64,000 bases of DNA from an archaeon (GTDB lineage Archaea > Nanobdellota > Nanobdellia > Pacearchaeales > GW2011-AR1). Under the pieces are notes generated by a model. That model saw only the letters and a program-made list of their open reading frames with translations. It had not been told where the DNA came from and made no database searches. A program made the position numbers and the translations under genes. The DNA is taken from positions 64,148 through 128,147 of the forward strand of contig JAIORZ010000002.1 in the NCBI GenBank assembly GCA_021107855.1. Direction: 5' to 3'. This document shows, in pieces, positions 1 through 40,474 of the stretch (its first letter is position 1; each line of letters begins with the position of its first letter).

Positions 1-1897
1 GATAATCTGAACACGGCTTCCATGGGTCTCCGTTACACTTCTCACAATCGGCACCACCAGCAGGAGGAGTCCACGGACTACAAGTGAAATAGACATATTT
101 TTCTTTTACATCTTTGAACACATACCACCCAATAGGGTCTAAAATTGCTGCAAGAGTTTTACCTATACCAAGCTCGAGAAAAAGTGAATATGATGTCGCC
201 CGCATAAGATAATCACCCCACCCCGATGCCGCATCAGGATTTGCCATACCCGTATCCTCCCACCTATCCTTATCTGCTCCTTGTAGCACATTCAAATACG
301 TCCCAGTTCCCCCCAAAGAATAATTATCCGGACTAATATAGTCCCCCTCAACAACTGTCGTTTTCGATTTATATGCAGCAATCAAAGCAGCAGAAAGAGT
401 CTTAATTGGAAGACTCCTCTTATAGCCTCCAGTGACACTAAATCCCCCATCACTCCACCCCTCCTCAATATTCACATACGAACCACAATCCCCAAGACTC
501 CTACAAAAATCATGCATCTGGTCAGTAAAAGTCTGCTCTGCACAATCACAATTCTGAACACATTCCCACTTAAGTTTATGATTTTTTTTGAAAAGCATAA
601 GACAATCCTGACTAGCTATATCACAAGTAGTACTCGCAGCAGCCGCCGCTTCCGTATCATTCCAGTCAAACCCAGGCGGATACTCCGGCACACACACATC
701 AAATTCAAAGTAATCAACATCAACTTCCAATTCAAAACAATCACGAACACTATCACAACTCTCCCCACTACTCCCCGTATTCAAAGCAAGACACGCCGCC
801 CAACTATTATCAATACAAAGAGAACTTTTAAAACTCACATTAGTCCCATTCACCTCATAATTATTTGTTTGCACACATATCTCCCTCCTCGAATCCGCAC
901 AAGGCTCAACCAACACAGTCCCCTGCGAACAGACATATCTCCAATGCCTCGACCCAACAATATCATAACCATCCCCAATAGTCCCATCATAAACACACCA
1001 AGACTCTCCATTCTCATAACTTTCTCCTTCAAACACACACGCCGTATCCCGACAATAAAAATCCCCAATATCAACATTAAAATTATCCTCACTAGCAGAG
1101 GCACAAATTCCACCATCAAACCGATTACAATTCCCACAACTTGCACTATTAGCGTTCCCATTTGCATCACCATCCCCACAAATCTCTCCAGTCCCCACAA
1201 TAATCCTATTCCAATAACTCGCATCATCAACCCTCCCCGCATCATAAATATTCGCAATATTCCCACACGAATCAACAAAATAAACCCCATCTTTTCCGTC
1301 CACACACTGCGTCTGCCTCGTCATATTGCAACTCGTATTAAGCTCAAAAGAAGTGCAAAGATAGTCCTCAGCAAAATCTCCACCATAAGAATAGCAATCA
1401 GCCTCACTAGTAAATTTACAAGCCCCACCCTCCAAAACACAAGCTCCTTCCTTTTGCACACCAGCCAAAAGCAAACACTCCACCAAATTAAGGTCTCCTC
1501 TCCAATCAACATCCATTCCAGCCGCCAAACTATCTACCTCGCACTGCCCTACTGTCTCAAAAATACTAGTATCCCCCAAAACACAACACCCGAGATTAGC
1601 TCCAATCAAATTACAATACGGGTCATTGATCCAATCCATCGAACAACTTCCCTGTAAAACATTCTTATCATATATCCCACTAGAATCATCATAACAACAA
1701 CCCCTCTCACAAGAGGCGGTCTGATTACATTCCACTCCCTCGGCAAAAAGCGAGCCCTCAGCACAACCATCAATATCCGAAATCACACAATTATCCCCAT
1801 TAACACTCAAAAAACAACATCCCTCCCCAACACCCAACGCCAACACAAACGAAGCCATTAACACAAACCCAATCACTATTCCTATTTTTTTATTCAT
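1..1897 (-). CDS. Large Cys-rich secreted surface protein, paralogue of 2681..6349 (N-terminal ~632 aa; C-terminus beyond window start)
   Basis: The frame is open on the - strand from ATG 1897..1895 (MNKKIGIVIGFVLMASFVLALG, signal-like) to the window edge. It is missing from the ORF track only because no stop lies in the window. Hand translation of 1..540 gives ...FCRSLGDCGSYVNIEEGW...GGADCEKCNGDPWKPCSDY, collinear with CRGLGDCGGSVNIVGEY...GGADCEKCNDDPLKPCSEY of 2681..6349. Antisense track ORFs 512..1657 and 4946..5704 are near-identical over long runs, which confirms nucleotide-level paralogy. Confidence 0.8.
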   Translation of the reverse strand, partial: MNKKIGIVIGFVLMASFVLALGVGEGCCFLSVNGDNCVISDIDGCAEGSLFAEGVECNQTASCERGCCYDDSSGIYDKNVLQGSCSMDWINDPYCNLIGANLGCCVLGDTSIFETVGQCEVDSLAAGMDVDWRGDLNLVECLLLAGVQKEGACVLEGGACKFTSEADCYSYGGDFAEDYLCTSFELNTSCNMTRQTQCVDGKDGVYFVDSCGNIANIYDAGRVDDASYWNRIIVGTGEICGDGDANGNANSASCGNCNRFDGGICASASEDNFNVDIGDFYCRDTACVFEGESYENGESWCVYDGTIGDGYDIVGSRHWRYVCSQGTVLVEPCADSRREICVQTNNYEVNGTNVSFKSSLCIDNSWAACLALNTGSSGESCDSVRDCFELEVDVDYFEFDVCVPEYPPGFDWNDTEAAAAASTTCDIASQDCLMLFKKNHKLKWECVQNCDCAEQTFTDQMHDFCRSLGDCGSYVNIEEGWSDGGFSVTGGYKRSLPIKTLSAALIAAYKSKTTVVEGDYISPDNYSLGGTGTYLNVLQGADKDRWEDTGMANPDAASGWGDYLMRATSYSLFLELGIGKTLAAILDPIGWYVFKDVKEKYVYFTCSPWTPPAGGADCEKCNGDPWKPCSDY

Positions 1898-1899
1898 GT

Positions 1900-2643
1900 C
1901 TACCATTCAAACGCACAACTCCTCACAGCAAATTTAAACTCGCTTCCACTTCTACGGTCAATCACACTATAAATCTTACTATAATCATAATCGGCTCGCT
2001 GAATTTCATACTCAGGATAAACAAACGAATAAGTATCATAATTAAAATGGCAATATTCAGTTTCCCCATTCACAATCTCCCTCACCACCCTAACCAAATC
2101 ATAAATCGGCGACATAATCTCAACCCCGAAATCTTCAAAACTCCTCGTCCCTGTCTCTCCCGAAAGCTCAACACTCTTCTTCAAATTAACCGCAACATGC
2201 CCAGGCAATAAATCAACAGAATAACTCATCGCGCCCTCATCAACATCAAAACCCTCATCCTCAAAACTCTCCCTCATCTTATCAAAACAATCCCCTAACT
2301 CATCTTCTATATCCTCCTCTATCTCTCTCTCAATCTGTAACTCCAACAACGGATGGATATTATAACAAGGATAATAAGACTCATTAATATAACACAAATA
2401 ATTCCACTCTTCCCCTTTGTACAAAATTGTCTTCGACGCCTCTATCTCGCCACCATTCAACAATATCTTATCAATCGACTCCTCCACAGCCTCACGAACA
2501 CAAACCTTAACAAATTCTTGCGGGCTCAAATCACTAGGACTCAAAAATCCACCTTCCCCTTCCGTCAGAAAGAAAAATCCCAAAACAGAAGCAACAAGTA
2601 GAATACCCACTATAATAAAAATCGTCACCTGCCCTCTTTTCAT
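1900..2643 (-). CDS. Pilin-like protein with candidate class III (prepilin-type) signal peptide; paralogue of 6353..7123
   Basis: Track ORF 1900..2865 is trimmed to the internal ATG 2643..2641 (MKRGQVTIFIIVGILLVASVLGFFFL) because the longer version overlaps the end of 2681..6349. KRG-Q followed by ~20 hydrophobic residues resembles archaeal prepilin signals. The rest aligns with 6353..7123 (ILYKGEEWNYLCYI / ILYEGEEWNYLCYQ; FKFAVRSCAF / FRFAVRSCAF). Confidence 0.7.
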   Translation of the reverse strand: MKRGQVTIFIIVGILLVASVLGFFFLTEGEGGFLSPSDLSPQEFVKVCVREAVEESIDKILLNGGEIEASKTILYKGEEWNYLCYINESYYPCYNIHPLLELQIEREIEEDIEDELGDCFDKMRESFEDEGFDVDEGAMSYSVDLLPGHVAVNLKKSVELSGETGTRSFEDFGVEIMSPIYDLVRVVREIVNGETEYCHFNYDTYSFVYPEYEIQRADYDYSKIYSVIDRRSGSEFKFAVRSCAFEW

Positions 2644-2680: not shown

Positions 2681-5600
2681 TTATGTCGCCACCAGCTCGA
2701 CCAAGCATCCACTCGGCACATTTCCATGAACATCTTTACATCGAATAAAATATTTCTTTCCCTTAACAACCCCAAATTCAAATTCCTTACCCTCCCCAAT
2801 CGAAACACCCTCATCCCAAACAAACTTACATCCGTCAAGCGAATATTTACACTCCGCTCCCTCATTCAAAATCAAATTCACAAAACTTTGGTCCTGCCAA
2901 ATACGACTAACCTGAGGAATCGAGCTATCATGAATAATTTCAAACTCAGTAACACCCCTAGCAAAATCCCCAGTCTCATCCTCGCACTCAACAAAAATCT
3001 CATTCCTTCCGGCTGGACGATTAAAAATCTGCGTATGCATTCTATTTCCTCCCGTCTCAAACAACTCAATCATATTCTCATAACCCGAAAACGAATACGA
3101 ACAAAAATGCTCTTCTCCTCCACCAGAAGTCGCAATCCTCAATTCAACCGTCGTCATATCAGTACTCGTCTGAAAATCAGTCCCCGGCTCAACACTATCA
3201 ATCACAATCACACTCTCCGGCCTCCGAACCTCATAAACAAAACTCCTCAGATTAAAATTACGCTCACTATCATTCAACCACGGCTGGTCCCCACATCTAA
3301 TATAATAAGTATAATTCTGCCTCTGCTCCCCCAACAACAAAGTACTATTACAAACATAACCTAAAACATCCGACGGAGCACCGAAAGAATCCCCACAATA
3401 CATCTCATTCTCCATCTCCGAATGTATAATATCTCTCTCACTCCACCAACAAGTCGCCAACTCATTTGTCACAATCTCCAACTCAACCTCTCCAACAACA
3501 ACCCCAACCAACTCATCATTCTTAGGCGTCGTCTTAACAACCCTTGGCGCACTAATATCCTCACCCTCATTCACACACATCTCAATCTCATAAAATCCAT
3601 CATTCAATATTCCATAAACATCCTGACACCTCACAAACAAACTCAAATCCCCAGTCCAATTATAACCCTGACTCTGCCCGTGACTCGGATCCGGCAAACT
3701 AAAAACCGTCGTATGGTTTATCAGATAAGCATTTCCCCCCAAATCCTGACCCAAACTCTCAAAATCCGTCGCCTCAAAATCAAACTTACAATGCGCCAAC
3801 TCACTCGTCACGACACCAAACATCAAAGGAGTATAAGCATCAATACAGCCTCCCCCACTAGGATTCAAACTAAACCCAGAACTACTGACATCATCATAAA
3901 TAATCCCATCCGAAATCACATCATACTGCGGACTAAGCACAGGCGCCTTCCCATCATCCTCCATAGCACCACACAACTCATTATCAGTCCCAACATTCAT
4001 CAATTCACATGCCGCCCCCAAACTCTCGCACCGGTATTCCGAGCACGGCTTCAGCGGGTCATCATTACACTTCTCACAATCAGCTCCCCCAACAGGCGCC
4101 TCCCATGCCTTACATTCAAACTCAATCTCAATATCATCACAATCACCTGCCCCAAAAAGACTACCAAGAATCATTAATATTACACCTATTATAATTATAG
4201 CCCATCCAACTGGTCCTATCGAAGCAAGACCAGCCCCCAATCCATACCATCCAACAACCGCCCCAATCAAAGCTCCCCCAACTGCCATCAACATGGTCCC
4301 ACCCGGACTCAATTCTAAATAATTCGCCAACATAGTCCCTACAAGCATTCCAATAGAAGCACCCATAGCAGCACCACCAAAAGCACTCAGCCCGGGACTA
4401 CTTCCCAAAAGACCTCCTTCAATAACAGTCATCCCCAAAACCGAACCAGACGTAAGAAAGCTTATCGCCATCGAAACCCCACTCAAACCACTCGCAAAAT
4501 CTTGCATCTTATCCCCAGTATCATCAGCACTCGCATTCAATGACGTCGATGGTCCCCAAATCCCAGCCGCTTCCAAAAACACCGAATAATTTTCAACTTC
4601 CGCAAACTGCCCCGGAACAGGTTTCGCCAAATCTTTCAACTTATCAACCCAACTAGAAGAAAGAAAGAGACTACTATCCGTTACGCCATCCTTAGTAACA
4701 TCATAATTTTCACTATACTCCCCCACAATATTAACCGACCCACCACAATCCCCAAGTCCCCTACAAAAATCATTCATCTCCTCCGCAAAAACACTAGTCA
4801 AACAATCCTCATTCGCAACATATTCACACCCTCTTCCCCATTTCTCACCCTCTCTCACAACCGTGCATGTTTGAGTCCCCATCCCACAAAGTTTCGACGC
4901 CGTAGTCATAGACCTCTCCTCACTTAAACTAAATCCCGCCGGATATTGTGGCAAACAAATATCAAACTCAAAGTAATCCGCAACATCAACCGTCTCAATC
5001 CTACAATTCAACGCACTCTCACAAGCCGTCGTTCCATCTTCCTCGCTATTCAAATTAATACACTCTCTCCAATTATTTGCCACACACGCAGAATCCCGAA
5101 AAGGAACACTCTTTCCATTAACATCAAACTCATCAGCCTGAATACAAATCTGATTTCTATAATCCGCACAAGGCTCAACCACCACAACTCCCTGCGAACA
5201 GACATATCTCCAGTGCCTCGACCCTACAACATCATTCCCTTCCCCAATTGCCCCATCATAAACACACCAAGACTCCCCATTCCTATAGCTCTCTCCCTTA
5301 AAAAGACACGAAGTATCCCTACAATAAAAATCCCCAATATCAACATTAAAATTATCCTCATCAGCCGAACTACAAATACTCCCCGCAAATCGATTACAAT
5401 TTCCACATTCTTCGGAATTCGCATTCCCACCGTCTATATCTCTACTCCCACAAAGGTCTTCCAACTCAGCGACCCTATCCCAATAATCCACATCATCAAC
5501 TTTCCACACATTATAAATATTCGCAGGGTTCCCACAAGAATCAACAAAATAAACCCCATCTTTCCCATCCACACATTGCGTCTGCCTCGTCATCTCACAA

Positions 5601-6349
5601 CTCGTATTAAGCTCAGGAGAGGTGCAAAGATAATCTTCAAAAAAATCTCCACCATAATTATGACAACTCTCCCCTGTCACAAACTTACAAGCTCCACCCT
5701 CTAAAACACAAGCCCCTTCCTTTTGCTCCGTCGCTAAAAGAAAACACCCTGCCTCATTTACATCCTTCCTCCAATCCACACCACCACTATCCCCAAGCGC
5801 CAAAACAAAACTATCAACCTGACACTGCCCCTCGGTCTCATAACTGGTTTCTGCTCCTAAAATACAACAACCCAGAGCGGCACCAGGCAGATTACAATTC
5901 GGATCCTTAACCCACTCCGTCAAACAATCAACCGACAGAACATTCCTATCATAAATCCCAGATGCTTCATCATAACAACATCCCTTCCGACAAAACGCAG
6001 TATCCTTACAAAGCAATCCCTCGGCAAAAGGAGAATCCGCAACACAATTATCAGGAGCGGACGTGCCACACCTTTGCTCATCTTTAGAAATAAAACAACA
6101 ACCAAATCCCTCAGCGAGTGAAGAAATCTCATAAGTTGTCCGCGTCTCATTCCTAAACAAATGACTTCTCTGTGTCCTATTCCACCACTCCTCAAAACTA
6201 AACTCCTCTTCCTCTTCCGCCGAGACCAATGAGAAAACCACATCACTTAAACCAATAAAATAACAAAACGCAAAAAGCGAAACCATCATCAGCATCATCT
6301 CTACACCAGCCACAACCTTTCTACTCCTCACCTTCTTTTTTGTTTCCAT
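2681..6349 (-). CDS. Giant (1222 aa) Cys-rich membrane-integrated surface protein, family not recognised
   Basis: The ORF has an N-terminal hydrophobic anchor (VVAGVEMMLMMVSLFAFCYFIGL). About 600 aa of very Cys-rich sequence follow (GCCYD, GCCILG, CGNCNRF). Four Gly-rich hydrophobic helices lie at nt ~4147..4493. Four ~90-110 aa modules then follow, each bracketed by conserved Cys (A.CK[FY] ... Y.[IV]RC.D..GN). Confidence 0.85.
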   Translation of the reverse strand: METKKKVRSRKVVAGVEMMLMMVSLFAFCYFIGLSDVVFSLVSAEEEEEFSFEEWWNRTQRSHLFRNETRTTYEISSLAEGFGCCFISKDEQRCGTSAPDNCVADSPFAEGLLCKDTAFCRKGCCYDEASGIYDRNVLSVDCLTEWVKDPNCNLPGAALGCCILGAETSYETEGQCQVDSFVLALGDSGGVDWRKDVNEAGCFLLATEQKEGACVLEGGACKFVTGESCHNYGGDFFEDYLCTSPELNTSCEMTRQTQCVDGKDGVYFVDSCGNPANIYNVWKVDDVDYWDRVAELEDLCGSRDIDGGNANSEECGNCNRFAGSICSSADEDNFNVDIGDFYCRDTSCLFKGESYRNGESWCVYDGAIGEGNDVVGSRHWRYVCSQGVVVVEPCADYRNQICIQADEFDVNGKSVPFRDSACVANNWRECINLNSEEDGTTACESALNCRIETVDVADYFEFDICLPQYPAGFSLSEERSMTTASKLCGMGTQTCTVVREGEKWGRGCEYVANEDCLTSVFAEEMNDFCRGLGDCGGSVNIVGEYSENYDVTKDGVTDSSLFLSSSWVDKLKDLAKPVPGQFAEVENYSVFLEAAGIWGPSTSLNASADDTGDKMQDFASGLSGVSMAISFLTSGSVLGMTVIEGGLLGSSPGLSAFGGAAMGASIGMLVGTMLANYLELSPGGTMLMAVGGALIGAVVGWYGLGAGLASIGPVGWAIIIIGVILMILGSLFGAGDCDDIEIEFECKAWEAPVGGADCEKCNDDPLKPCSEYRCESLGAACELMNVGTDNELCGAMEDDGKAPVLSPQYDVISDGIIYDDVSSSGFSLNPSGGGCIDAYTPLMFGVVTSELAHCKFDFEATDFESLGQDLGGNAYLINHTTVFSLPDPSHGQSQGYNWTGDLSLFVRCQDVYGILNDGFYEIEMCVNEGEDISAPRVVKTTPKNDELVGVVVGEVELEIVTNELATCWWSERDIIHSEMENEMYCGDSFGAPSDVLGYVCNSTLLLGEQRQNYTYYIRCGDQPWLNDSERNFNLRSFVYEVRRPESVIVIDSVEPGTDFQTSTDMTTVELRIATSGGGEEHFCSYSFSGYENMIELFETGGNRMHTQIFNRPAGRNEIFVECEDETGDFARGVTEFEIIHDSSIPQVSRIWQDQSFVNLILNEGAECKYSLDGCKFVWDEGVSIGEGKEFEFGVVKGKKYFIRCKDVHGNVPSGCLVELVAT

Positions 6350-6352
6350 ATT

Positions 6353-7123
6353 TTAAATCCCCGGCGCGAACGCACAACTCCTCACAGCAAACCGAAACTC
6401 GTCTCCACTCCTCCTATCAATCAACCGATAAATCTTACTGCCCGAATAATCAATTCTTCTAATATCATACCTAGGATACAAAAGCATATACCCATTATAC
6501 TCAAAATTACAAAACTGCGACTCACTGTTCACAACATCCCGAGCCACACTAACCAAATCATAAATCGGCGACACAACTTCAATCCCAAAATCCTTAGAAC
6601 TCTGAGTCCCCATATCCCCAGAAATATCAACCTGCCTCGACAAATCAACCTTAACATACCCAGGCAACAAATCAACAGAAAAACTCATCACACCAATCTC
6701 AACATCAAAACCCTCATCCCTAAAACTCTCCCTCATCCTATCAAAACAACTCTCTACCCCACCCGATATATCCTCCTTAATCTCGCTCTCAATTCTCAAT
6801 TCCAACATCGGATGAATATTATAACATCCCTGATAAAAATCCGCCTGATAACACAAATAATTCCACTCTTCCCCCTCATACAAAATGGCCTGCGATGGCA
6901 CCGCCTCACCACCATTCCTCATCATCTTATCAACCGAATCCTTAACCAAATCAGAAACACATCCCCTAACAATAGTCCGCGGGTCCAAATTATCAGCCCT
7001 ATCAACACCAGTCTCTCCCAAAAGCAAAAACGACAAAAGAATCATAGCTACAATCACGATACTAACCATGAAAAAAATCGCCACCTGTCCTTTTGTTCCA
7101 ACACCCATTTTTTTATTTACCAT
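6353..7123 (-). CDS. Pilin-like protein with candidate class III signal peptide (256 aa)
   Basis: The N-terminus MVNKKMGVGTKGQVAIFFMVSIVIVAMILLSFLLL has a KG-Q motif plus a hydrophobic helix. It is a paralogue of 1900..2643. Its ATG shares one nucleotide with the stop of 7123..7824 (TAATG), which suggests translational coupling. Confidence 0.75.
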   Translation of the reverse strand: MVNKKMGVGTKGQVAIFFMVSIVIVAMILLSFLLLGETGVDRADNLDPRTIVRGCVSDLVKDSVDKMMRNGGEAVPSQAILYEGEEWNYLCYQADFYQGCYNIHPMLELRIESEIKEDISGGVESCFDRMRESFRDEGFDVEIGVMSFSVDLLPGYVKVDLSRQVDISGDMGTQSSKDFGIEVVSPIYDLVSVARDVVNSESQFCNFEYNGYMLLYPRYDIRRIDYSGSKIYRLIDRRSGDEFRFAVRSCAFAPGI

Positions 7124-7824
7124 TAATCGATTTCCACGTATAAATAATATACTACATTACCTCCAATACTTTCATTCCCATAATCTGGCACAATCATCTG
7201 AAAATCATAAATACCACCATCATAACCACCAACATCATCTTCAATCTCCGTAGCAAAAACAATATCAGTATCATCAAACAAAACAATTTCTTCAAAACTA
7301 GAATTCTGAGTAACATTATCAACATATGCATTTGAAGCAAAACAATCCCCAACGCCAACAGAAAAACTAGCGATAACATAAGTTTCAATATTTGTCCCGG
7401 AAAAAGTGGACGAGATATTATCACCTCCAGAATGTTGTAAGGCACTATCCTCACTATTAATCTGACTAGTATTAGCACAGCCAATATTCCCCCACTCAAT
7501 AGACCCAGAGCCACGAGTAGCGTAAACTTCCCCGCCAGTAGTGGAAGATGACCAATCATAAACCGTAGAACCCGTAGAATCATCCAAAGTAAATTTCCCA
7601 TTAACCCAACCAACAAAACCCTTCCAACGAGAATTCTGTGAAATCGAAGAGATATTCATTTTAGCAACATAAGCACCAGAAATATTGACCATCCAAGGAT
7701 TAGCAGCCCCAGCCCCAGTCTCGTTATACGTTATATTCAAAGAGCTAGGTCCGGTCGGAAGTCCAGCAACAATACCCAAAAATCCAACCAAAAAAATCAA
7801 AACAAATCCTATTTTAACATCCAT
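7123..7824 (-). CDS. Secreted/anchored protein rich in N-x-S/T sequons (233 aa), hypothetical
   Basis: The N-terminal signal or anchor is MDVKIGFVLIFLVGFLGIVAG. The protein carries about 10 N-glycosylation sequons. It is packed tightly between the wHTH gene and the pilin-like gene. Confidence 0.7.
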   Translation of the reverse strand: MDVKIGFVLIFLVGFLGIVAGLPTGPSSLNITYNETGAGAANPWMVNISGAYVAKMNISSISQNSRWKGFVGWVNGKFTLDDSTGSTVYDWSSSTTGGEVYATRGSGSIEWGNIGCANTSQINSEDSALQHSGGDNISSTFSGTNIETYVIASFSVGVGDCFASNAYVDNVTQNSSFEEIVLFDDTDIVFATEIEDDVGGYDGGIYDFQMIVPDYGNESIGGNVVYYLYVEID

Positions 7825-7994
7825 AAGTTCACCCCCGCTTTTTTAATTCTATCAACTTCCCCATCCAAAGCCAATTCCATCAGATGTTTCTCCGCAGTAT
7901 TCCAAGAAACACTAAACTTCTCCGCCACCTCGCTACTTGTCACAATTCTCTCTTTCTTAATCAAAGCAATAATCTTTTTACTATGTATCTTCAT
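7809..7994 (-). CDS. Small winged-helix/HTH DNA-binding protein (61 aa)
   Basis: Track ORF 7809..8096 is trimmed to ATG 7994..7992. The product MKIHSKKIIALIKKERIVTSSEVAEKFSVSWNTAEKHLMELALDGEVDRIKK... has a wHTH-like pattern. It overlaps the next gene by 16 nt. Confidence 0.55.
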   Translation of the reverse strand: MKIHSKKIIALIKKERIVTSSEVAEKFSVSWNTAEKHLMELALDGEVDRIKKAGVNLWMLK

Positions 7995-8110
7995 AATAAT
8001 ACACCTACTAATATACACACTAATACTCGCGCCAATACACTCATCAATATACCTATGAATATTCATATATAAATGTTCGCAAAATAAAAACTTCAAACTA
8101 TATACATCAA

Positions 8111-8149
8111 TTAATCGTTCTCAACCCTCGGAGTTAAGACAAAACCATA
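8111..8149 (-). pseudogene. Orphan fragment of a PCNA 3' end (YGFVLTPRVEND*)
   Basis: 8114..8146 matches the last codons of PCNA (9036..9068) at 29/33 nt. The fragment encodes ...YGFVLTPRVEND with its own TAA stop (8111..8113). No upstream ORF is attached. Confidence 0.7.
8115..8133. repeat. 19-nt perfect direct repeat core (copy 1) tcgttctcaaccctcggag
   Basis: The sequence is identical to 9037..9055. Confidence 0.9.
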
Positions 8150-9036
8150 AGAATCAACAACAAATTTAAGGACACGAACAACGGCACATCGTAGTTGTTA
8201 TTTCAAACCACTGCGAACCAAACCAAAAACCCCCACTACTCCAGCATTCTTCATGGTCAGCTGCCCCAGGCCAAAAACCAGTATAACTATTCACGCAACT
8301 ATGAGCGGTGCCAATCCCAATAGCATTTTCTCCCTTGCTTGCACAGAAATTAACACAAGTTCCCTCCCAATCATAATAATCATGATCTCCCGGAATACAA
8401 CAGCTCTTAGTTCCACTTACCGTCCTCGTCCTACCACAATTCGTCTGAACAACCGTATCCGTAGAACAAACACCATCCCTCGGAGGAGACCAAATAGTAT
8501 AAGCAAAATCCCCATCATCAATCGCCTTCTGCAAACTCTTCTCTCCATTAAAATCAACTAAAATATCATCTCCAACATGACCCAAATAATCGCTACCAGA
8601 ATAACCACCACTCCCCCCCCCTGATGAACAAAGCGATCCATCATTAATAGAATCTTGTAAACTCTTATCAAAACCATTAACATTAACAAAAAGCTCAGCT
8701 CCCCGATGTCCAATATCCACAGCACTCGTATACGTCCCCCCATTATAATCTATTCCAAACTGCCCCGAATTAATAGCACTCTGCAATTCCAATTCCTGCC
8801 CATTGATAAAAACAAAAACATCATCTCCTCCATGTCCAGGACTCGAAATACTTTGAGAATAACCAACAACCAAACCAACACTCAATAAAACAAAAACAAA
8901 AACAAACCTCACATTAACCATATTATTATTAAGAATAATTATTATTTAAATATTTCGAACTTTTTCCATTTTCCAAATCTAAAACTCAATTATAAAACCA
9001 TCAACAATCCCTAACCCAACCTCCGAACATACTCAG
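8134..9036 (-). mobile_element. Candidate integrated single-gene cassette (no integrase) bounded by the PCNA-end direct repeats
   Basis: The segment lies between the two copies of the 19-nt core. It holds only CDS 8166..8921, a TATA-like box (ATATTTAAATAA on the - strand, ~8943..8955) and the surrogate last codons of PCNA. Confidence 0.35.
8166..8921 (-). CDS. Secreted protein with three ~45-aa repeats and a Cys-rich C-terminal domain (251 aa)
   Basis: The signal peptide is MVNVRFVFVFVLLSVGLVVG. The three repeats read GHGGDDVFVFINGQELELQSAINSG / GHRGAELFVNVNGFDKSLQDSINDG / GHVGDDILVDFNGEKSLQKAIDDG. A C-terminal domain with ~12 Cys follows. Confidence 0.75.
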   Translation of the reverse strand: MVNVRFVFVFVLLSVGLVVGYSQSISSPGHGGDDVFVFINGQELELQSAINSGQFGIDYNGGTYTSAVDIGHRGAELFVNVNGFDKSLQDSINDGSLCSSGGGSGGYSGSDYLGHVGDDILVDFNGEKSLQKAIDDGDFAYTIWSPPRDGVCSTDTVVQTNCGRTRTVSGTKSCCIPGDHDYYDWEGTCVNFCASKGENAIGIGTAHSCVNSYTGFWPGAADHEECWSSGGFWFGSQWFEITTTMCRCSCP

Positions 9037-9755
9037 TCGTTCTCAACCCTCGGAGCCAAGACAAATCCAATCCCCATCTTCTCCCCAGGAAAATCCAATT
9101 TCAAAGGATAATCATCAGAAAAATTCACAACAACTCTCTCAGAAATCTTCACACCCTTCACAAACTTCATCAAATATTCCAACGAATACTTACTCTTTCC
9201 CTGCCCAAAAATCTCCAAATCTTTTCCTCCAAACTCAGCTCGTGCAGAATTCAAATTTCCGTTCCCCTCAACCGCAAAAACATCATCTTTCAAAACAAAC
9301 GCACAAGAATCAGCCACCACACTAGCATCCTCAACAGCCTGAGCAAAATCCCTCGACCCCATCTCAACCCGCGCCCCAAAATTCAACTCCGGAATATCCT
9401 TATCTTCCGCGCTCACCTCAATCAACGCCAAACTAAAAACCCGCTTAACCTTATCAAAAATCGTAATCCTCAACTTCCCCTCAACTTCCTCCAACGTCAC
9501 ACTCGCAGCCCCAGAAGCCCTCTTCAAAATTTTCTTCAAATCCCCCAAACTCACACCCCAAACCTCATCCCCAGCATCATACTGCGCAAAACTCTCCTTC
9601 GGCAAACGAAAAATAATCAACGCCACATTCGCTGGGTCAACCGCAACAACACTCAAACCATCCTCTAACAACTTAATCCGAACCTCCACAACAATATTAG
9701 AAATAATATCCACAGCGTCCCCAAGCAACCTCGGATCATCCAGTTTTAATATCAT
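9033..9755 (-). CDS. pcn: DNA polymerase sliding clamp PCNA
   Basis: The 240-aa product is collinear with archaeal PCNA, running from MILKLDDPRLL...AVDPANVAL through LEYLMKFVKG to PLKLDF...GFVLAPRVE. Confidence 0.9.
   Translation of the reverse strand: MILKLDDPRLLGDAVDIISNIVVEVRIKLLEDGLSVVAVDPANVALIIFRLPKESFAQYDAGDEVWGVSLGDLKKILKRASGAASVTLEEVEGKLRITIFDKVKRVFSLALIEVSAEDKDIPELNFGARVEMGSRDFAQAVEDASVVADSCAFVLKDDVFAVEGNGNLNSARAEFGGKDLEIFGQGKSKYSLEYLMKFVKGVKISERVVVNFSDDYPLKLDFPGEKMGIGFVLAPRVEND
9037..9055. repeat. 19-nt perfect direct repeat core (copy 2) inside the PCNA 3' end
   Basis: The sequence is identical to 8115..8133. Confidence 0.9.
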
Positions 9756-10117
9756 AAAGAAACTACCCCCGAAGGAAGAGCGTCATTATCAAAGCTCCTA
9801 ATCTCCCCCAAATAAAAACATTTATCCTCAACTTTAATTTCGAAAACAAGCCCATCGACTCCCCTATATTTTTGAACAGGAAATCCCCTTTTATTTAAGC
9901 GATCCATTTCTAGATAAGAAATCTCATCTTCTTTTAAAGTAGGAGCCACGAGATAGTGACCTTCCCCTAACGAAGAAGACTTAACAACACAAAGGTCAAC
10001 ACCATTTCCCAGTTTACTTTTTACCTTAATATCCAACATCTCAAGACATCCAGAAACCTCTATACGCTCCTCTTGATCCATCAAAAATCTCATACTTCCG
10101 CCATTCCCAATTTCCAT
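9752..10117 (-). CDS. Hypothetical protein (121 aa) co-transcribed upstream of PCNA
   Basis: The ORF overlaps the PCNA start by 4 nt (ATGA-type). I recognised no motif. Confidence 0.55.
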   Translation of the reverse strand: MEIGNGGSMRFLMDQEERIEVSGCLEMLDIKVKSKLGNGVDLCVVKSSSLGEGHYLVAPTLKEDEISYLEMDRLNKRGFPVQKYRGVDGLVFEIKVEDKCFYLGEIRSFDNDALPSGVVSL

Positions 10118-10201: not shown

Positions 10202-11785
10202 ATGGTAGAAACTCCATCAAAAGTCCAAAACATCGCCCAGTCCCACTACTCTCGCCCAGACATCCAAAAAGCCATGTTCGACTTCTGCAAACACAGAGAA
10301 ACCGTCGCCAATTTCAACAACAAATTCTTCGCAAAACGCCCAGACACATTCGACTACCCATCAGACATCCTCAACCAAGCCAAACAAGGCGCAACATCAT
10401 TCCACTGCTCCGAAGAAATCTGGACAAACCCACTCGACATCAACACGGACATGACACCCCAACAATACAACGAAATCAGAACGGGCTGGGACCTAATCAT
10501 AGACATCGACTCTCCCTACCTCGACTACGGAAAAATCGCAGCCCACCTCCTAATTAAAGAACTCGAAAATCACGGCATCCAAAACATCGGAATAAAATTT
10601 TCAGGCTCAAAAGGCTTCCACATAATAGTCCCATTCAAAGCATTTCCAGAATCCGTCGACGGTGTTAAAACAAAAGACCAATTCCCAGACTGGCCACGAG
10701 CAATCGCCCAATACCTATTCAACAAAATCAGAAACCCAATGAACGAAGAAATCCTCAAACTCTCAAGCAAAGAAAAACTAAAAGAACAAGGCGAACTAGT
10801 ATCAGAGCACACTTGCCCAAAATGTAGTCAACCAACAATAAAAAAGAAATTCTGGAAATATAGGTGCCCAGACATAAAATGCAAAACAGAAATTGAAAGC
10901 CCAATAAAAAAGAAGGTCGTAATGTCTTGCCCATCCTGTAACGCAAAAATGAAATTAGAAGGCAAAAGAGAAGTAGACTTCTGCAAAGTCTGTAAAATCA
11001 ACACCGCCAAACTAGAAGCCACAAGTTCATATGGAGGAGTCCAACAACAAAATCTCCAAGAGCAATTCAAAGAAGAAATCACAATCAAATCAACAGAAGA
11101 CTCCGTCGACATAGTCCTAGTTTCATCCCGCCACCTCTTCCGCGCCCCATACTCCCTCCACGAAAAAACCGCCTATGCCTCAATCCCAATCGACAAATCA
11201 CAAATCCAAACCTTCAGTCCCTCAGACGCAGAACCCATCAAAATCACAAAAATAAAATCCTTCATGCCAAACTCAATCAAAGACGAAGCCACAAAACTCC
11301 TGACAAAAGCCCTAAAAGAAGCCGAAAAAAACAAACCAAAAGAAACCCAAAAAAAATACGACGGCAAAGGAATCGACCTAAAAGGACTAACAATAACAGA
11401 AGAAATGTACCCACCAATCATAAAAAAACTCCTCCTAGGCATCCCAAACGACGGCAGAAAACGAGCCCTGTCCCTAATGCTGGCATTCTTCACCTCCCTA
11501 GAATTTCCCCAAGACTACATCGAAGAGAAAATAGAAATATGGAATAATAAAAATTACGCCCCACTAAAACAAGGCTACATCAAATCCCAAATCGCATGGT
11601 CACTAAAAAACAAAAGATTACCCCCAAACTACGACAAACCAATCTACAAAGAATTTGGAATAACCGCACCACCAATCCCTGGCATGAAAAACCCAATTAA
11701 TTATACCATAAAAAGAGCATTCGCAGCAAAACCCAAAACTTCAGAAAAGTTCTACATAAAAGCAAAAAACAAGGGAGAAATATAA
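10202..11785 (+). CDS. priS: DNA primase, fused PriS catalytic domain plus PriL-CTD-like helix bundle
   Basis: AEP primase motifs are present: WDLIIDIDSP (DxD), KFSGSKGFHIIVPF and SRHLFRAPYSLHEKT. An inserted Cys4 x2 zinc-ribbon region reads CPKC..CPDIKC..CPSC..CKVC. The C-terminal part (YPPIIKKLLLGIPNDGRKRALSLMLAFF...LPPNYDKPIY) resembles a PriL/PriX-type bundle but lacks the usual Fe-S cysteines. Confidence 0.85.
   Translation: MVETPSKVQNIAQSHYSRPDIQKAMFDFCKHRETVANFNNKFFAKRPDTFDYPSDILNQAKQGATSFHCSEEIWTNPLDINTDMTPQQYNEIRTGWDLIIDIDSPYLDYGKIAAHLLIKELENHGIQNIGIKFSGSKGFHIIVPFKAFPESVDGVKTKDQFPDWPRAIAQYLFNKIRNPMNEEILKLSSKEKLKEQGELVSEHTCPKCSQPTIKKKFWKYRCPDIKCKTEIESPIKKKVVMSCPSCNAKMKLEGKREVDFCKVCKINTAKLEATSSYGGVQQQNLQEQFKEEITIKSTEDSVDIVLVSSRHLFRAPYSLHEKTAYASIPIDKSQIQTFSPSDAEPIKITKIKSFMPNSIKDEATKLLTKALKEAEKNKPKETQKKYDGKGIDLKGLTITEEMYPPIIKKLLLGIPNDGRKRALSLMLAFFTSLEFPQDYIEEKIEIWNNKNYAPLKQGYIKSQIAWSLKNKRLPPNYDKPIYKEFGITAPPIPGMKNPINYTIKRAFAAKPKTSEKFYIKAKNKGEI
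11641..11785 (+). repeat. 145-nt imperfect direct repeat, copy 1 (functional 3' end of primase)
   Basis: The copy aligns without gaps to 11959..12103 and begins with an identical 15-nt run, aatctacaaagaatt. Confidence 0.85.
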
Positions 11786-11797
11786 CTCCCCAAGTCC

Positions 11798-11858
11798 GCA
11801 AAATAAAATTTTAGGCGCAGGTGTCCATTGGACGGCGCCGTAAAAAATTTTATTTTGC
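11798..11858. repeat. Long hairpin / inverted repeat
   Basis: gcaaaataaaatttt (11798..11812) pairs with aaaattttattttgc (11844..11858). The stem extends inward through ggcgc/gcgcc and gtcc/ggac. Confidence 0.8.
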
Positions 11859-11866
11859 ATTAAACA

Positions 11867-11914
11867 CTATATCAAAAAATCATTTTTCTATGGAAAATTA
11901 ATTTTTTGATATAG
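11867..11914. repeat. Perfect 14-bp inverted repeat with 20-nt loop
   Basis: ctatatcaaaaaat (11867..11880) pairs with attttttgatatag (11901..11914). Confidence 0.85.
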
Positions 11915-11937
11915 CTAATTAAGAGGGTACACATCTG

Positions 11938-11953
11938 AGGGAGATATCTCCCT
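11938..11953. repeat. Perfect 16-bp palindrome agggagatatctccct
   Basis: Read directly from the sequence. The palindrome is centred on an EcoRV-like gatatc. Confidence 0.85.
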
Positions 11954-11958
11954 GGGAT

Positions 11959-12103
11959 AATCTACAAAGAATTCGGCATTACATCACCCCCAGCTCCAGG
12001 CATCAAAAACCCAATCAACTACACTATAAAAAAAGCCTTCGCCGCAAAATCAAAGACATCACAAGATTTCTACGTAAAACAAAAAAACAAACACGAAATA
12101 TAA
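11959..12103 (+). pseudogene. Orphan copy of the primase 3' end (48 codons, IYKEFGITSPPAPGIKNPINYTIKKAFAAKSKTSQDFYVKQKNKHEI*)
   Basis: The fragment is in-frame with no internal stop but is cut off upstream by TGA at 11936..11938. About three quarters of the nucleotides match 11641..11785. Its TAA (12101..12103) abuts the stop of convergent gene 12104..13084. Confidence 0.75.
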
Positions 12104-13084
12104 CTACTTCCCTTTCTTCTTAACCTTCTTCCTGGCAGGCTTCTTCCTCATTAAAGCTTTCTTCCTTGCTAAGGCCTTCTTCTTTTTAGCAGCCGCTTCC
12201 TTAGCAGCCATCTCTTTTCTAGCAATAAAAAATATAAACAAAATCAATCCAAGTAAAACTAAAGCAAACAGCCAACTTCCAGCACCACCACCAATAACTG
12301 CACCAGTTATCATAGACAAAAATCGATTAGCCTCAACATTTTCAGGTTCAACATCCGAACTCGAAACAATGGTGTCATCATCAGAACTAACATTTACACT
12401 CTCAGCCACATAAGTCCCATTAGAAACTAAAGAATACGCTCCTCCACTAGAACTGCCACCACTCGATCCCCCTCCACTACTACCTCCACCACTGCCACTA
12501 CTACCACCAGAGCTACAAGCACCACAATCAGCAGCACAACTTGAACAATCCTCTCCACTATTACAAGCACCATCTCCACAAAAAGGAGCAGTACAATTAG
12601 AATAATCAAAAGTACAAAAACCCGTACAAGACAATGTCCCAGTAGCACCTAAAATCCCCAAAACATTTTCACAAGTTCCAACTCCGAGCATAGACCCATC
12701 ACACTGTTCACCGGGCTCCTGAATACTATTCCCACAAACAGCATACAAAGGTTCCTCATCAATTATCAAATCCAATTCACTAAAATCACCCGCCTCATAG
12801 ATAGCAGTCGGATGCGCCTCAATACCTCCAATATAAAAAGTAATCTCTCCCGTTCTCCCCTGAGGATCAATCATCACACTATAAGAATTCCCGGAATCAA
12901 CATTACCAACAACACCCAACCCATAACCATCTATCGAGGCACTAATTTCTGAGTCAGTTAAATCCCACAAAGGGTCTTCAGAATAAGTCGCATTCCCCGA
13001 AAAAGCATTAGGTATACTCGGGATAGCAAAAACAAAACCTAACAACAACAATCCCACCACAACAAACAGCACTTCCTTTCTCAT
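12104..13084 (-). CDS. Anchored surface protein with Cys-rich repeats, Gly/Ser linker, C-terminal TGAV-type anchor and Lys-rich tail
   Basis: A signal peptide is followed by CGNSIQEPGEQCDG and CGDGACNSGEDCSSCAADCGAC motifs and a (GGS)n linker. The C-terminus reads FLSMITGAVIGGGAGSWLFALVLLGLILFIFFIARK plus a poly-Lys tail. Confidence 0.75.
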   Translation of the reverse strand: MRKEVLFVVVGLLLLGFVFAIPSIPNAFSGNATYSEDPLWDLTDSEISASIDGYGLGVVGNVDSGNSYSVMIDPQGRTGEITFYIGGIEAHPTAIYEAGDFSELDLIIDEEPLYAVCGNSIQEPGEQCDGSMLGVGTCENVLGILGATGTLSCTGFCTFDYSNCTAPFCGDGACNSGEDCSSCAADCGACSSGGSSGSGGGSSGGGSSGGSSSGGAYSLVSNGTYVAESVNVSSDDDTIVSSSDVEPENVEANRFLSMITGAVIGGGAGSWLFALVLLGLILFIFFIARKEMAAKEAAAKKKKALARKKALMRKKPARKKVKKKGK

Positions 13085-37394: not shown

Positions 37395-38396
37395 TCATTT
37401 CCCAACCCTCGCCCAATCATAAAACAAAAACCAAAACACCGAAAAATAAACCAAAAAGAAAACCATCCCAACATAAGAATGATACAACCCAATAGCAATC
37501 TCTTCAGAAATATAAGCCCCAATAACAAATAACAAAAACACCCTAAAAACATTAACAAAAAAAGCCCCAACAATAGCCGGAACAAAAACCAAAACAACCT
37601 TCAACCTATCCAGCTTCCCCCAATCCAAAATCACAGCGAACAAATAAAGAGAACTAAAAATAAAAATCGAATAAACCCCAGAACAAGCCTCCCCAATCTC
37701 AGCAGCAAAACCCCCAAAACTAAAAGTATACTGATTAATAACGACAACATCCCCAACAAGCCCCAACAAAAAAGAAGTAACCCTAACAACAATCAAACTA
37801 AGAAACGGCCAAAGCCTCCAAACATAATACATCAAAGAATAAACAATAACACCGAAAATAAAGAAATACAAAAGCTCCCTCTTAAACTTCCTAAAAAAAT
37901 CACGCAAAAAATTCAAACCAAAAATCCCAATAATCAAAAAAACAAAAATAGCCAAAAACAACAAATGAAAAAGAAAAATCCCAAGAACACTAGGTGAAAA
38001 CTTCCCAATATTCAAATTCAGGCCCACCAGGGTCATGCCGTTTGAGGCCAAAATATAAAATCCAATAACACATAAAAGAGACAACTCCAACATCAAGAGA
38101 CTCACTTTCTCACGCTTAAAAAAACTCAACTTCAACAACCTATCCCGATAAAACAAAACAAACCCAAAAATCGAAAACAACAAAACCTTCCCCATCCCCC
38201 CATAAATAAAAAACTTAAACCCATAAAGCAAAGACGAAGCAACAATCCTCTGCCCAATCGCAAAAGATATCAAAATAAACAAACCCAAAAAAACCCCAGT
38301 CTTAACAAGAAACTGCCGAAACCCTTTCTCCAATACCATAACAAAACATAAAAAAATCAATATATAACCCTTCCTAAATCCAAAAACTCTTCTCAA
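37395..38396 (-). CDS. Archaeosortase/exosortase-family transpeptidase
   Basis: The protein is a polytopic membrane protein. EIGEACSGVYSIFIF (Cys), NVFRVFLLFVIG (Arg) and GLYHSYVG (His) occur in the order expected for the catalytic triad. Three PEF-CTERM-type substrates lie in the window. The start may be the MVLEKGF Met (38339). Confidence 0.65.
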   Translation of the reverse strand: MRRVFGFRKGYILIFLCFVMVLEKGFRQFLVKTGVFLGLFILISFAIGQRIVASSLLYGFKFFIYGGMGKVLLFSIFGFVLFYRDRLLKLSFFKREKVSLLMLELSLLCVIGFYILASNGMTLVGLNLNIGKFSPSVLGIFLFHLLFLAIFVFLIIGIFGLNFLRDFFRKFKRELLYFFIFGVIVYSLMYYVWRLWPFLSLIVVRVTSFLLGLVGDVVVINQYTFSFGGFAAEIGEACSGVYSIFIFSSLYLFAVILDWGKLDRLKVVLVFVPAIVGAFFVNVFRVFLLFVIGAYISEEIAIGLYHSYVGMVFFLVYFSVFWFLFYDWARVGK

Positions 38397-39428: not shown

Positions 39429-39491
39429 CCCACCAAAAACCCAGTATTTTTTATAAGCTTTATCGTGATAAGAAATATATTATAGAAACAC

Positions 39492-39926
39492 TCAATCCCT
39501 TCTAACAACAAAAAATATCCCAACCGCACTCAAAGCAGTCAACATCCCAATAACAAATCCAAACTCAGGAACAACATGATAATTATCAAACTTATTATTA
39601 AAGTCAGCTTTATACACCCCACAATCTCCTTCCGCAACCTCATAAGCATCAAAACAAAAATACCCAGAATCATCAACAACATAACTTCCAAAAGCAACAA
39701 TATCATTAGGATCACAAGAAGCCTCTCCCGGCTGACCCTTTATTTCCCAATCATATTCCCCAGGAACAAAACCATCTCCCCTAATATAAACATGCTCCCC
39801 AATATCATACTCATTCGCATCTTGCGGAACACAACCCACCTTCGTAGTCCAAATAGCACCAGTCCCAGCACTAGCAAGACCAACAAAAAACATTCCCATC
39901 AACAACATAACAAATAATTTTCTCAT
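39492..39926 (-). CDS. PEF-CTERM-type sorting-signal protein (144 aa)
   Basis: The protein has a signal peptide and the C-terminus VVPEFGFVIGMLTALSAVGIFFVVRRD. It overlaps the upstream gene by 4 nt. Confidence 0.75.
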   Translation of the reverse strand: MRKLFVMLLMGMFFVGLASAGTGAIWTTKVGCVPQDANEYDIGEHVYIRGDGFVPGEYDWEIKGQPGEASCDPNDIVAFGSYVVDDSGYFCFDAYEVAEGDCGVYKADFNNKFDNYHVVPEFGFVIGMLTALSAVGIFFVVRRD

Positions 39927-40474
39927 TCTTTCCTTACCACAAAAAATATCCCAACCGCACTCAAAGCAGTCAACATCCCAATAACAAGCCCAAACTCAGG
40001 AACCATAGGAACACAAATACAAACAACATTCCAACAATCCAAAATCTTATCCTTAACTTCCTTAGGACCTCCAGTGCCAACCAACCCATCTTTCTCAGCA
40101 TTAACAGTCACAAAATCCCCAATAGTACAATCCGAGTCATCAAACTTAACAACATAAAAACCACCAATCAAACTCTGAGTATACATAGTAGTCAACGCCC
40201 CATCATGGTCACAGATAATCTCAACATTAGCTCCAACAATCCCAACACCAGACGCCTCATCAAAAACTATCCCCTTAACAATCGTCTTCACAGGATAACA
40301 ATCATTACACATAGTACCAAACGTCCCAGCCTCAGCCTCGACATACTCACAAGTCACATCATCATCCCCAACCGCACAAACAATATCCTCATCCTCATAA
40401 ACATAAGACTCAGCACCAACAAAGCCAAGGGCTAAAACAAACATTCCAACAAGCATCAAAGTCATAACTTTCAT
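39923..40474 (-). CDS. PEF-CTERM-type sorting-signal protein with CarboxypepD_reg-like domain (183 aa)
   Basis: The ORF is trimmed to ATG 40474..40472 (MKVMTLMLVGMFVLALGFVGA). The C-terminus is MVPEFGLVIGMLTALSAVGIFFVVRKE. Confidence 0.75.
   Translation of the reverse strand: MKVMTLMLVGMFVLALGFVGAESYVYEDEDIVCAVGDDDVTCEYVEAEAGTFGTMCNDCYPVKTIVKGIVFDEASGVGIVGANVEIICDHDGALTTMYTQSLIGGFYVVKFDDSDCTIGDFVTVNAEKDGLVGTGGPKEVKDKILDCWNVVCICVPMVPEFGLVIGMLTALSAVGIFFVVRKE

Follow-up and report, generated by a model that had tools for sequence, protein, structure and literature searches.

Displacement of the 3' end of a gene by incoming DNA is known from rhs, CDI (contact-dependent growth inhibition) and type VI secretion system (T6SS) loci. 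For the C-terminal displacement at rhs genes of Enterobacteriaceae, host homologous recombination with a circular intermediate holding a piece of the conserved region has been proposed (Jackson et al. 2009, PMC2935791), and homology-facilitated illegitimate recombination (HFIR) has been invoked for the displacement of T6SS effectors in Vibrio cholerae (Kirchberger et al. 2017, PMC5361080). Here we describe displaced 3' ends of two neighbouring replication genes, i.e. those for the DNA sliding clamp PCNA and for a fused PriS-PriL primase, in 64,000 nt of chromosomal DNA (contig JAIORZ010000002.1, positions 64,148 to 128,147; hereafter the window) from a Pacearchaeota-like DPANN archaeon of marine sediment. 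On balance, and with moderate confidence, we favour the view that the arrangement is a recombination scar, left by a homology-guided and integrase-independent displacement of the gene end, rather than a mobile element's att site. This kind of displacement is familiar from the bacterial loci named above; a narrow literature search on HFIR and archaea returned no archaeal report of such scars.

The likeness to rhs is close. Here too, a dissociated fragment lies behind an intact gene and repeats its conserved 3' part (positions 9033–9068 and 8111–8146 for PCNA, 11641–11785 and 11959–12103 for the primase), the fragment is the ancestral end, pushed downstream by an incoming end plus gene(s), and the retained length varies (11 codons at PCNA, 22–59 at primase genes). 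Orphan cdiA-CT/rhs-CT modules show the same kind of process. In contrast to rhs, the affected genes are archaeal housekeeping genes of replication and not polymorphic toxins, the end of the PCNA protein is unchanged and has no new tip, a surface protein or non-coding DNA takes the place of an immunity gene as cargo, and the orphans are single, not in long strings, with repeats of just 33–171 nt. No toxin tip with an immunity gene was seen: the last ~20 residues of the primase vary and change, without any mark of a toxin.

With HFIR, the locus would share a junction inside a conserved anchor gene combined with a non-homologous one, the addition of DNA beside the anchor, the retention of the old downstream material in a shifted position and the absence of an integrase. 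However, experimental demonstrations of HFIR come only from naturally transformable bacteria, usually with deletion of recipient DNA, whereas our data are sequences of an uncultured archaeon, and here the illegitimate join appears to lie inside the anchor gene, so that the gene end is duplicated. The primary papers on HFIR are reportedly those of de Vries and Wackernagel and of Prudhomme et al., both from 2002.

The insertion behind the PCNA gene

The following features, listed in the direction of PCNA transcription, make up the locus. Loci collected from related genomes are given L numbers and their proteins P numbers.

9033..9755, minus strand: PCNA gene, an open reading frame (ORF) of 240 aa with matches to Pfam PCNA_N and PCNA_C and to the NCBIfam sliding clamp
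9033..9068, minus strand: repeat copy 1, the working PCNA end, i.e. the final 36 nt, ...IGFVLAPRVEND plus stop codon TGA
8922..9032, minus strand: spacer of 111 nt that arrived with the insert, not present in the relatives with an empty site
8943..8952, minus strand: TATA-like box TATTTAAATA, 22–31 nt before the ATG of the cassette gene
8166..8921, minus strand: cassette gene, 251 aa, predicted secreted or surface protein
8147..8165, minus strand: final 19 nt of the insert, from the cassette stop codon to the non-homologous junction at 8146/8147, as placed by alignment with L006–L009 and L014
8111..8146, minus strand: repeat copy 2, the orphan PCNA end, i.e. the 11 native last codons, ...YGFVLTPRVEND, plus the native TAA; a non-coding remnant
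7997..8110, minus strand: native PCNA 3' flank, which is the promoter region of a winged helix-turn-helix (wHTH) operon, collinear with the DNA right after PCNA in L006–L009

The working PCNA gene, whose protein has 3355 homologues, the nearest ones named Candidatus Pacearchaeota or Nanoarchaeota, ends in ...GAGAACGACTGAGTATGTTCGG. Its last 11 codons (9036..9068) recur at 8114..8146 with 29 of 33 nt identical, including an exact 19-mer, TCGTTCTCAACCCTCGGAG, at 8115..8133 and 9037..9055; a repeat search returned the same pair with 91 % identity over 33 nt and the register moved by one (8115–8147 and 9037–9069). The similarity is bounded by the stop codon on one side and by positions 8147/9069 on the other, and the frame of the orphan differs from that of the cassette ORF. 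Allowing for up to 3 mismatches, the 19-mer matches the 64 kb at just these two places; shuffled sequence gives an expectation of 0.01 matches, and none of 100 shuffles gave 2. Among 53 distinct PCNA genes of relatives, a copy of the tail downstream of the gene was found in the window only (score 22, with a runner-up of 5 and a control maximum of 4). The same arrangement was assembled independently from three sequencing runs, all of them marine-sediment metagenomes, and is present on five public contigs; at the level of contigs, the three runs show no alternative joints at the locus.

Which of the two ends is native can be read from the relatives. Empty sites were found on four contigs of two related Pacearchaeota lineages, L006/L007 (PCNA 95 % identical) and L008/L009 (91 %), which have no cassette and in which PCNA runs directly into the operon for wHTH, 233-, 256- and 1225-aa proteins that in the window follows the orphan. 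Their PCNA end, its TAA and the next ~60 nt (TTGACGTATATAGCTTGAAA...) align to the orphan and its flank, and fail to align with the working end, which has a TGA and another flank. Since PCNA end, TAA and flank of the relatives are collinear with the orphan, the window carries a precise insertion of 922 nt with a single secreted-protein gene inside; judged by these alignments, the orphan is the original PCNA end, and the working end came with the insert. The protein end is the same after the insertion, the orphan excepted, and the PCNA tail is almost invariant at the protein level.

The closest relative, L014 (PCNA 96 % identical at the amino acid level, cassette 91 % at the nucleotide level), has the insert too, which therefore is older than the split of these two lineages. 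In L014, however, only the first ~16 nt of the orphan are recognizable and the rest is deleted. The PCNA orphan is thus not kept by selection, i.e. it is a decaying remnant and not a maintained site. Upstream of the 19-mer the working end looks native, and its sequence is foreign from the last codon; in the orphan, the native stretch runs from the 19-mer onwards. This pattern would fit a crossover inside the 19-mer, and neutral decay would fit it as well.

Much of this had been anticipated by an earlier note on this DNA made from its letters alone (hereafter the sequence-only reading). It took the 29/33 repeat with its 19-nt core for real; it regarded the orphan as the terminus of a once-functional allele, saw in the insert a surrogate gene end with a single gene having its own TATA-like box, described the product as secreted with a triple repeat, and foresaw empty sites in which PCNA is directly followed by the wHTH operon. 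All of these points hold, the secretion of the cassette protein as a prediction, and the once-functional allele can now be named as the native end itself.

The cassette protein has an N-terminal hydrophobic helix, three ~43-aa repeats (spaced at 129 and 126 nt in the DNA; invariant columns GH...F/V..G....LQ.AI..G.F) and a Cys-rich C-terminal part. It has just 4 homologues among 5.8 billion proteins, i.e. the orthologous copy in L014 and three proteins in unrelated contexts (P0122, P0123 and P0124), and inspection of all three contexts revealed no PCNA end beside them. No Pfam or NCBIfam family was matched, and an AlphaFold model built from a 5-sequence alignment was unusable (predicted local distance difference test score of 35). 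Between the window and L014, the TATA-like box and the ATG context are conserved in the spacer and the remainder is not.

Further observations concern the surroundings of this insert. Directly upstream of the small wHTH gene (7809..7997), positions 7997..8075 hold tandem ~11-nt iterons of the GGTATATTGAT / GAGTATATTAGT type, with ~4 copies in the window and ~10 in L006–L009 (at about 2600–2712 in L006), which may be operator sites of the wHTH protein. Several close PCNA homologues of 249–253 aa (P0004, P0036, P0037, P0043, P0046 and others; L008 8001–8750) carry an internal insertion of 9–13 residues, e.g. SSKDDPTGPKE in P0004, with unchanged N- and C-termini.

The displaced primase end and its recurrence

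The gene next door, which is oriented divergently to the PCNA operon, carries a second displaced end.

10202..11785, plus strand: fused PriS-PriL primase gene, 527 aa
11641..11785, plus strand: working primase 3' end, the last 48 codons, a foreign allele by sequence comparison
11786..11958, plus strand: non-coding insert of 173 nt with three hairpins (inverted repeats)
11959..12103, plus strand: orphan primase end, the native last 48 codons plus stop codon by the same comparison, abutting a 326-aa gene (12104..13084)

The working primase end reads ...KPKTSEKFYIKAKNKGEI. Its 145 nt of coding tail recur 318 nt downstream with 78 % identity (147 nt in the repeat search), and the similarity stops abruptly at 11958/11959. 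With its flank (CTACTTCCCTTTCTTCTTA), the orphan tail corresponds to the functional tail and flank of L014, including the abutment on the 326-aa gene, and 14 of 145 nt differ (12 synonymous and 2 non-synonymous codons). Between the working tail and that of L014, 32 of 145 nt differ (13 synonymous and 10 non-synonymous codons), the best match to the working tail among ~110 related loci reaches 80.7 %, and the identity of the primase gene to L014 falls from 92–100 % to 77–82 % near position 11620. By this comparison the orphan is the native end of the primase gene, and the working end is a foreign, outgroup allele. Since L014 has a single primase tail, without the 173-nt segment and without ORF121 (described below), the primase event was separate from the PCNA event and later.

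To see how common such orphans are, an alignment of primase tails was scanned against one genome per species and a metagenome collection, and the collected loci were then searched for extra copies of the tail. An orphan tail follows around 10 of the 74 distinct primase genes (~13 %, about one in seven), namely in the window, L021, L022, L028, L034, L048, L063, L070 and L102, and possibly in L077. The orphans start 22, 28, 35, 48 or 57 codons before the stop codon, and ~59 codons before it in L017, which makes at least six breakpoints; those of L021, L022 and L048 all begin at the motif GMKNPINYTI. Between the working tail and the orphan, the following inserts, all of them of at most ~1.6 kb, were found.

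Window, L021, L022, L048 and L063: 92–173 nt of hairpin-rich DNA
L070: gene for a 251-aa membrane protein
L028: gene with an NYN domain
L102: ORF of 160 aa on the opposite strand

The spacers of the different genomes show no mutual similarity, and the idea that they form one mobile family was dropped. In L056, L061 and L064 a hairpin comes natively after the primase stop codon, and it is this hairpin that forms the insert of L063, which is therefore ordinary flanking chromosome from a relative. When 728 distinct ORF tails of the collected loci were compared, true orphans were found at two other genes; the rate for genes other than primase in these loci is ~0.4 %. The primase tail holds two highly conserved motifs, IYKEFGI and KNPINYTI, followed by ~20 variable last residues, and borders on variable surface-protein regions; conserved motifs next to a variable border may make it a favoured crossover point.

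The two other affected genes encode a 593-aa ABC-transporter-like protein in L056 (11673 +85..+174), with the tail MFDKGKIV...GMKE* and an orphan MFDKGKIV...SIKK* 85 nt downstream, and a 181-aa protein in L045, with an orphan ~1.56 kb downstream. In addition, a lone orphan primase tail without a primase body lies at 1143..1325 of L017 (on the same contig as L080), where it has been called as a gene of 60 aa (P0125) and is preceded by a truncated WecG-type glycosyltransferase.

The 173-nt element was itself found in other genomes, i.e. with 67–82 % identity in L027 (4862–4989), L045 (269–462), L018 (6747–6866), L035 (7616–7715), L031 (312–412), L033 (10544–10618) and L103 (738–794). The family has a length of ~170–230 nt and three hairpins, is located just downstream of PCNA in most relatives, and reaches 82 % identity in a genome with just 73 % identity of the PCNA body at the protein level. 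Hairpin 1 shows compensatory changes in 11 of 25 pairs, and a second partial copy is present on another contig of the same sample (run X2). An Rfam scan returned no match to a described RNA family, and the element is a candidate for a new structured RNA or DNA hairpin element.

In the public copies of the contig (L001–L004), the 527-aa primase is uncalled and short antisense ORFs (50–94 aa) are called instead, probably due to the extreme strand composition (12 % G and 36 % A on the plus strand). In L027 (7717–9023), L036 (7720–9026) and L046 (7795–9029), the primase coding sequence is interrupted by ~1.3 kb between query residues 143 and 134, whose size and position suggest an intein or other inserted element.

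Proposed mechanism and alternative explanations

To account for the PCNA arrangement, we infer that the common ancestor of the window strain and L014 received DNA of a more distant Pacearchaeote, probably from its chromosome, comprising the 3' end of the donor PCNA and the gene after it. The donor DNA would have paired with the resident PCNA via the strongly conserved last codons, with a first join within the homology, at or near the 19-nt stretch, and a second, non-homologous join in the resident gene, 36 nt short of its end. As an outcome, PCNA would end in donor sequence with TGA, followed by the donor spacer and the promoter-bearing gene for the 251-aa surface protein, and the resident last 11 codons, TAA and flank would be displaced 922 nt downstream; the resident end would have been kept, as a dead stub, because the non-homologous join falls upstream of its stop codon. 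Host homologous recombination would suffice for this, making a dedicated integrase unnecessary. The incoming DNA may have been a linear fragment with a homology anchor on one side and an illegitimate join on the other, as in HFIR, or a circularized fragment integrated by a single crossover, as in the rhs model (Jackson et al. 2009), two routes that the PCNA data cannot separate. Later, the same process would have acted separately on the primase gene, replacing its last 48 codons and adding the 173-nt structured element. Here, differences unique to the window rise from 3.2 % in 11051–11584 to 8.9 % in 11585–11640 and 15.9 % in 11641–11785, and the rise in the 56 nt before the repeat suggests, if marginally, that a homologous crossover took place upstream of it, which would favour the linear route.

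Several observations weigh against this mechanism. The rise before the primase repeat is of marginal significance (Fisher p = 0.048) and also compatible with an insertion at a single site, as by a site-specific enzyme. The collected loci and the contexts of the cassette homologues revealed no donor for either event: in no lineage is this cassette the native neighbour behind PCNA, and in none of the ~110 loci does the 173-nt element come after a primase having this working tail. When the 56-aa foreign primase tail was used as query at the protein level, just two short ORFs and no donor came back, one of the two (P0125 in L017) being another orphan. In the 5' third of the PCNA orphan there are changes in common with the L014 remnant that a simple retention of the native end does not require. 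Finally, primase tails are affected ~thirty times more often than neighbouring genes, a bias that a generic process does not predict and that makes a targeted mechanism conceivable.

Tyrosine-recombinase islands and integrated viruses or plasmids of archaea target the 3' ends of tRNA or protein genes and bring a surrogate end in their attP. The sequence-only reading had seen in the locus the attL/attR footprint of such an integrating element, and a remnant or miniature, non-autonomous form of one, whose attP mimicked the PCNA 3' end and whose recombinase was lost or acts in trans, would explain its geometry exactly: direct repeats of the target-gene end bracket the insert, which supplies the working end, the native end lies on the far side, the homology ends at the stop codon and a 19-nt core is identical at both ends. 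The overrepresentation of primase tails as targets (10/74 vs ~0.4 % of other genes), the common GMKNPINYTI start in L021, L022 and L048 and the switch of the primase to foreign sequence near the start of the repeat point in the same direction. However, a scan of 29 ORFs of the window, i.e. that of the PCNA insert, its neighbours and 20 further mid-sized ones, revealed no recombinase, nor was one found in any of the ~10 inserts; the cargo of the parallel primase inserts is an NYN-domain protein, a membrane protein or unassigned. A viral-contig scan for fragments of primase tails was empty. The 19-mer was dropped as a special att core and does not discriminate in favour of this reading, because runs of comparable length arise between species by descent: PCNA tails of other species are identical to that of the window at 25–34 of 36 positions, and that of L071 has a run of 20 nt in common with it through descent alone. 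Just one PCNA event is known, and at the primase the crossover site is not a common one, with breakpoints from 22 to ~59 codons before the stop codon. Moreover, the inserts of 0.1–1.6 kb carry unrelated cargo, which in L063 is plain chromosomal flank, the three non-orthologous relatives of the cassette lack PCNA ends, and the orphan is decaying in L014. Because of the variable breakpoints, the unrelated cargo, the chromosomal flank and the decaying orphans, the att reading is disfavoured; most of the tests made speak against membership in this class, which is not supported, and we regard a remnant element as unlikely. So, while the repeat, the surrogate end and the empty sites of the sequence-only reading stand, its integrating element does not: the geometry is att-like, yet equally the product of homology-guided recombination without an integrase. 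Integron cassettes likewise are single promoter-proximal genes added behind a conserved site, with older material displaced downstream, but neither an IntI-type integrase nor an attI- or attC-like element at the cassette end nor an array is present here.

The duplication might instead have arisen in place, with a gene end copied in tandem, one copy diverging and the cassette arriving between them later, so that no foreign end was involved. The direct repeats are less than 1 kb apart, and small tandem duplications are common, but such an origin is contradicted at the primase, where the orphan groups with the L014/L008 lineage by few and mostly synonymous differences and the working copy is the outgroup with 10 non-synonymous ones, because the reverse pattern would be expected of a neutral orphan next to a constrained working copy. 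Furthermore, the nearest relatives lack the DNA between the copies, i.e. the cassette or the 173-nt element, which is no copy of the native flank, and the working PCNA end has another stop codon and another flank. We thus consider a duplication in place very improbable. Chance, a convergence in codon usage or a chimeric assembly of two strains in the metagenome would be suggested by the shortness of the repeat (33 nt) and by the near-invariance of the PCNA tail, which makes any PCNA fragment look alike. These possibilities are contradicted by the expectation of 0.01 matches, the collinearity of the orphan flank with the relatives, the recurrence in five contigs and three runs and the diverged form in L014, and can practically be dismissed. 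Compared with these explanations, homology-guided displacement remains our preferred reading.

It is tempting to speculate further that the conserved 3' ends of replication genes, above all that of the fused primase, are landing pads for small integrase-less units of tail plus cargo in Pacearchaeota, which would pass from lineage to lineage, being excised and inserted again by host recombination between tail repeats, or moved by an unrecognized targeted enzyme, but we hold this to be rather improbable. The swapping of the variable C-terminal tip of the primase would then be a side effect or a selected effect; the tip carries a motif, ...(Q)KTSEDFY..., which we take to be PIP-box-like, i.e. presumably resembling a PCNA-interacting motif. 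If true, DPANN archaea would possess a system of cassette acquisition without a dedicated recombinase.

Little is known of how DPANN archaea, which are uncultured and possess tiny genomes, acquire genes. Scars of this kind would be direct, datable footprints of DNA of diverged relatives joined at conserved gene ends without an integrase, with each event bringing one surface-protein or accessory gene. Their signature, i.e. an orphan copy located behind the working end of a gene, could be counted across metagenomes to gauge gene flow and its hot spots, of which the recurrent one at the primase is in our view the most interesting aspect. For annotation, such repeats should not be called att sites or prophage borders.

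A third insertion and other repeats in the window

Between the two displaced ends, at the other end of PCNA, a further gene has been inserted.

9752..10117, minus strand: ORF121, a lineage-specific insertion located exactly at the PCNA start codon, with a 4-nt overlap

ORF121 takes over the promoter and ATG context of PCNA, whose own ATG is re-created. It is not present in L006, L008 and L014, where the flanks are 90–99 % identical, and it has no family match in Pfam or NCBIfam and no homologue in any collected locus. In L010–L013, an unrelated-looking ORF of 118 aa occupies the same position. The 4-kb PCNA–primase block has thus taken three separate insertions. A single replacement of the whole PCNA–ORF121–primase block was ruled out, as L014 has the insert on the PCNA side without that on the primase side and without ORF121; the nucleotide identity across the block, which equals that of the flanks, also weighs against it. 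According to tRNA and Rfam scans of the window, the inserts are not linked to tRNA genes.

Other repeats in the window are of a different kind. Positions 1..2209 and 4035..6668 form a large direct duplication with 72–79 % nucleotide identity, which yields tandem paralogues of the genes for 256-aa and 1222-aa secreted proteins, i.e. the surface-protein operon next to the PCNA insert is duplicated. Further genes of the window are those for a thermosome, glycosyltransferases, an exosortase and many large secreted proteins. Near the exosortase-family gene (37395..38396), two adjacent small genes, for proteins of 144 and 199 aa, have a common 89-nt 3' end (39491..39579 and 39922..40010) with 88 % identity; these are paralogues and not orphans, and their common end may encode a C-terminal sorting signal.

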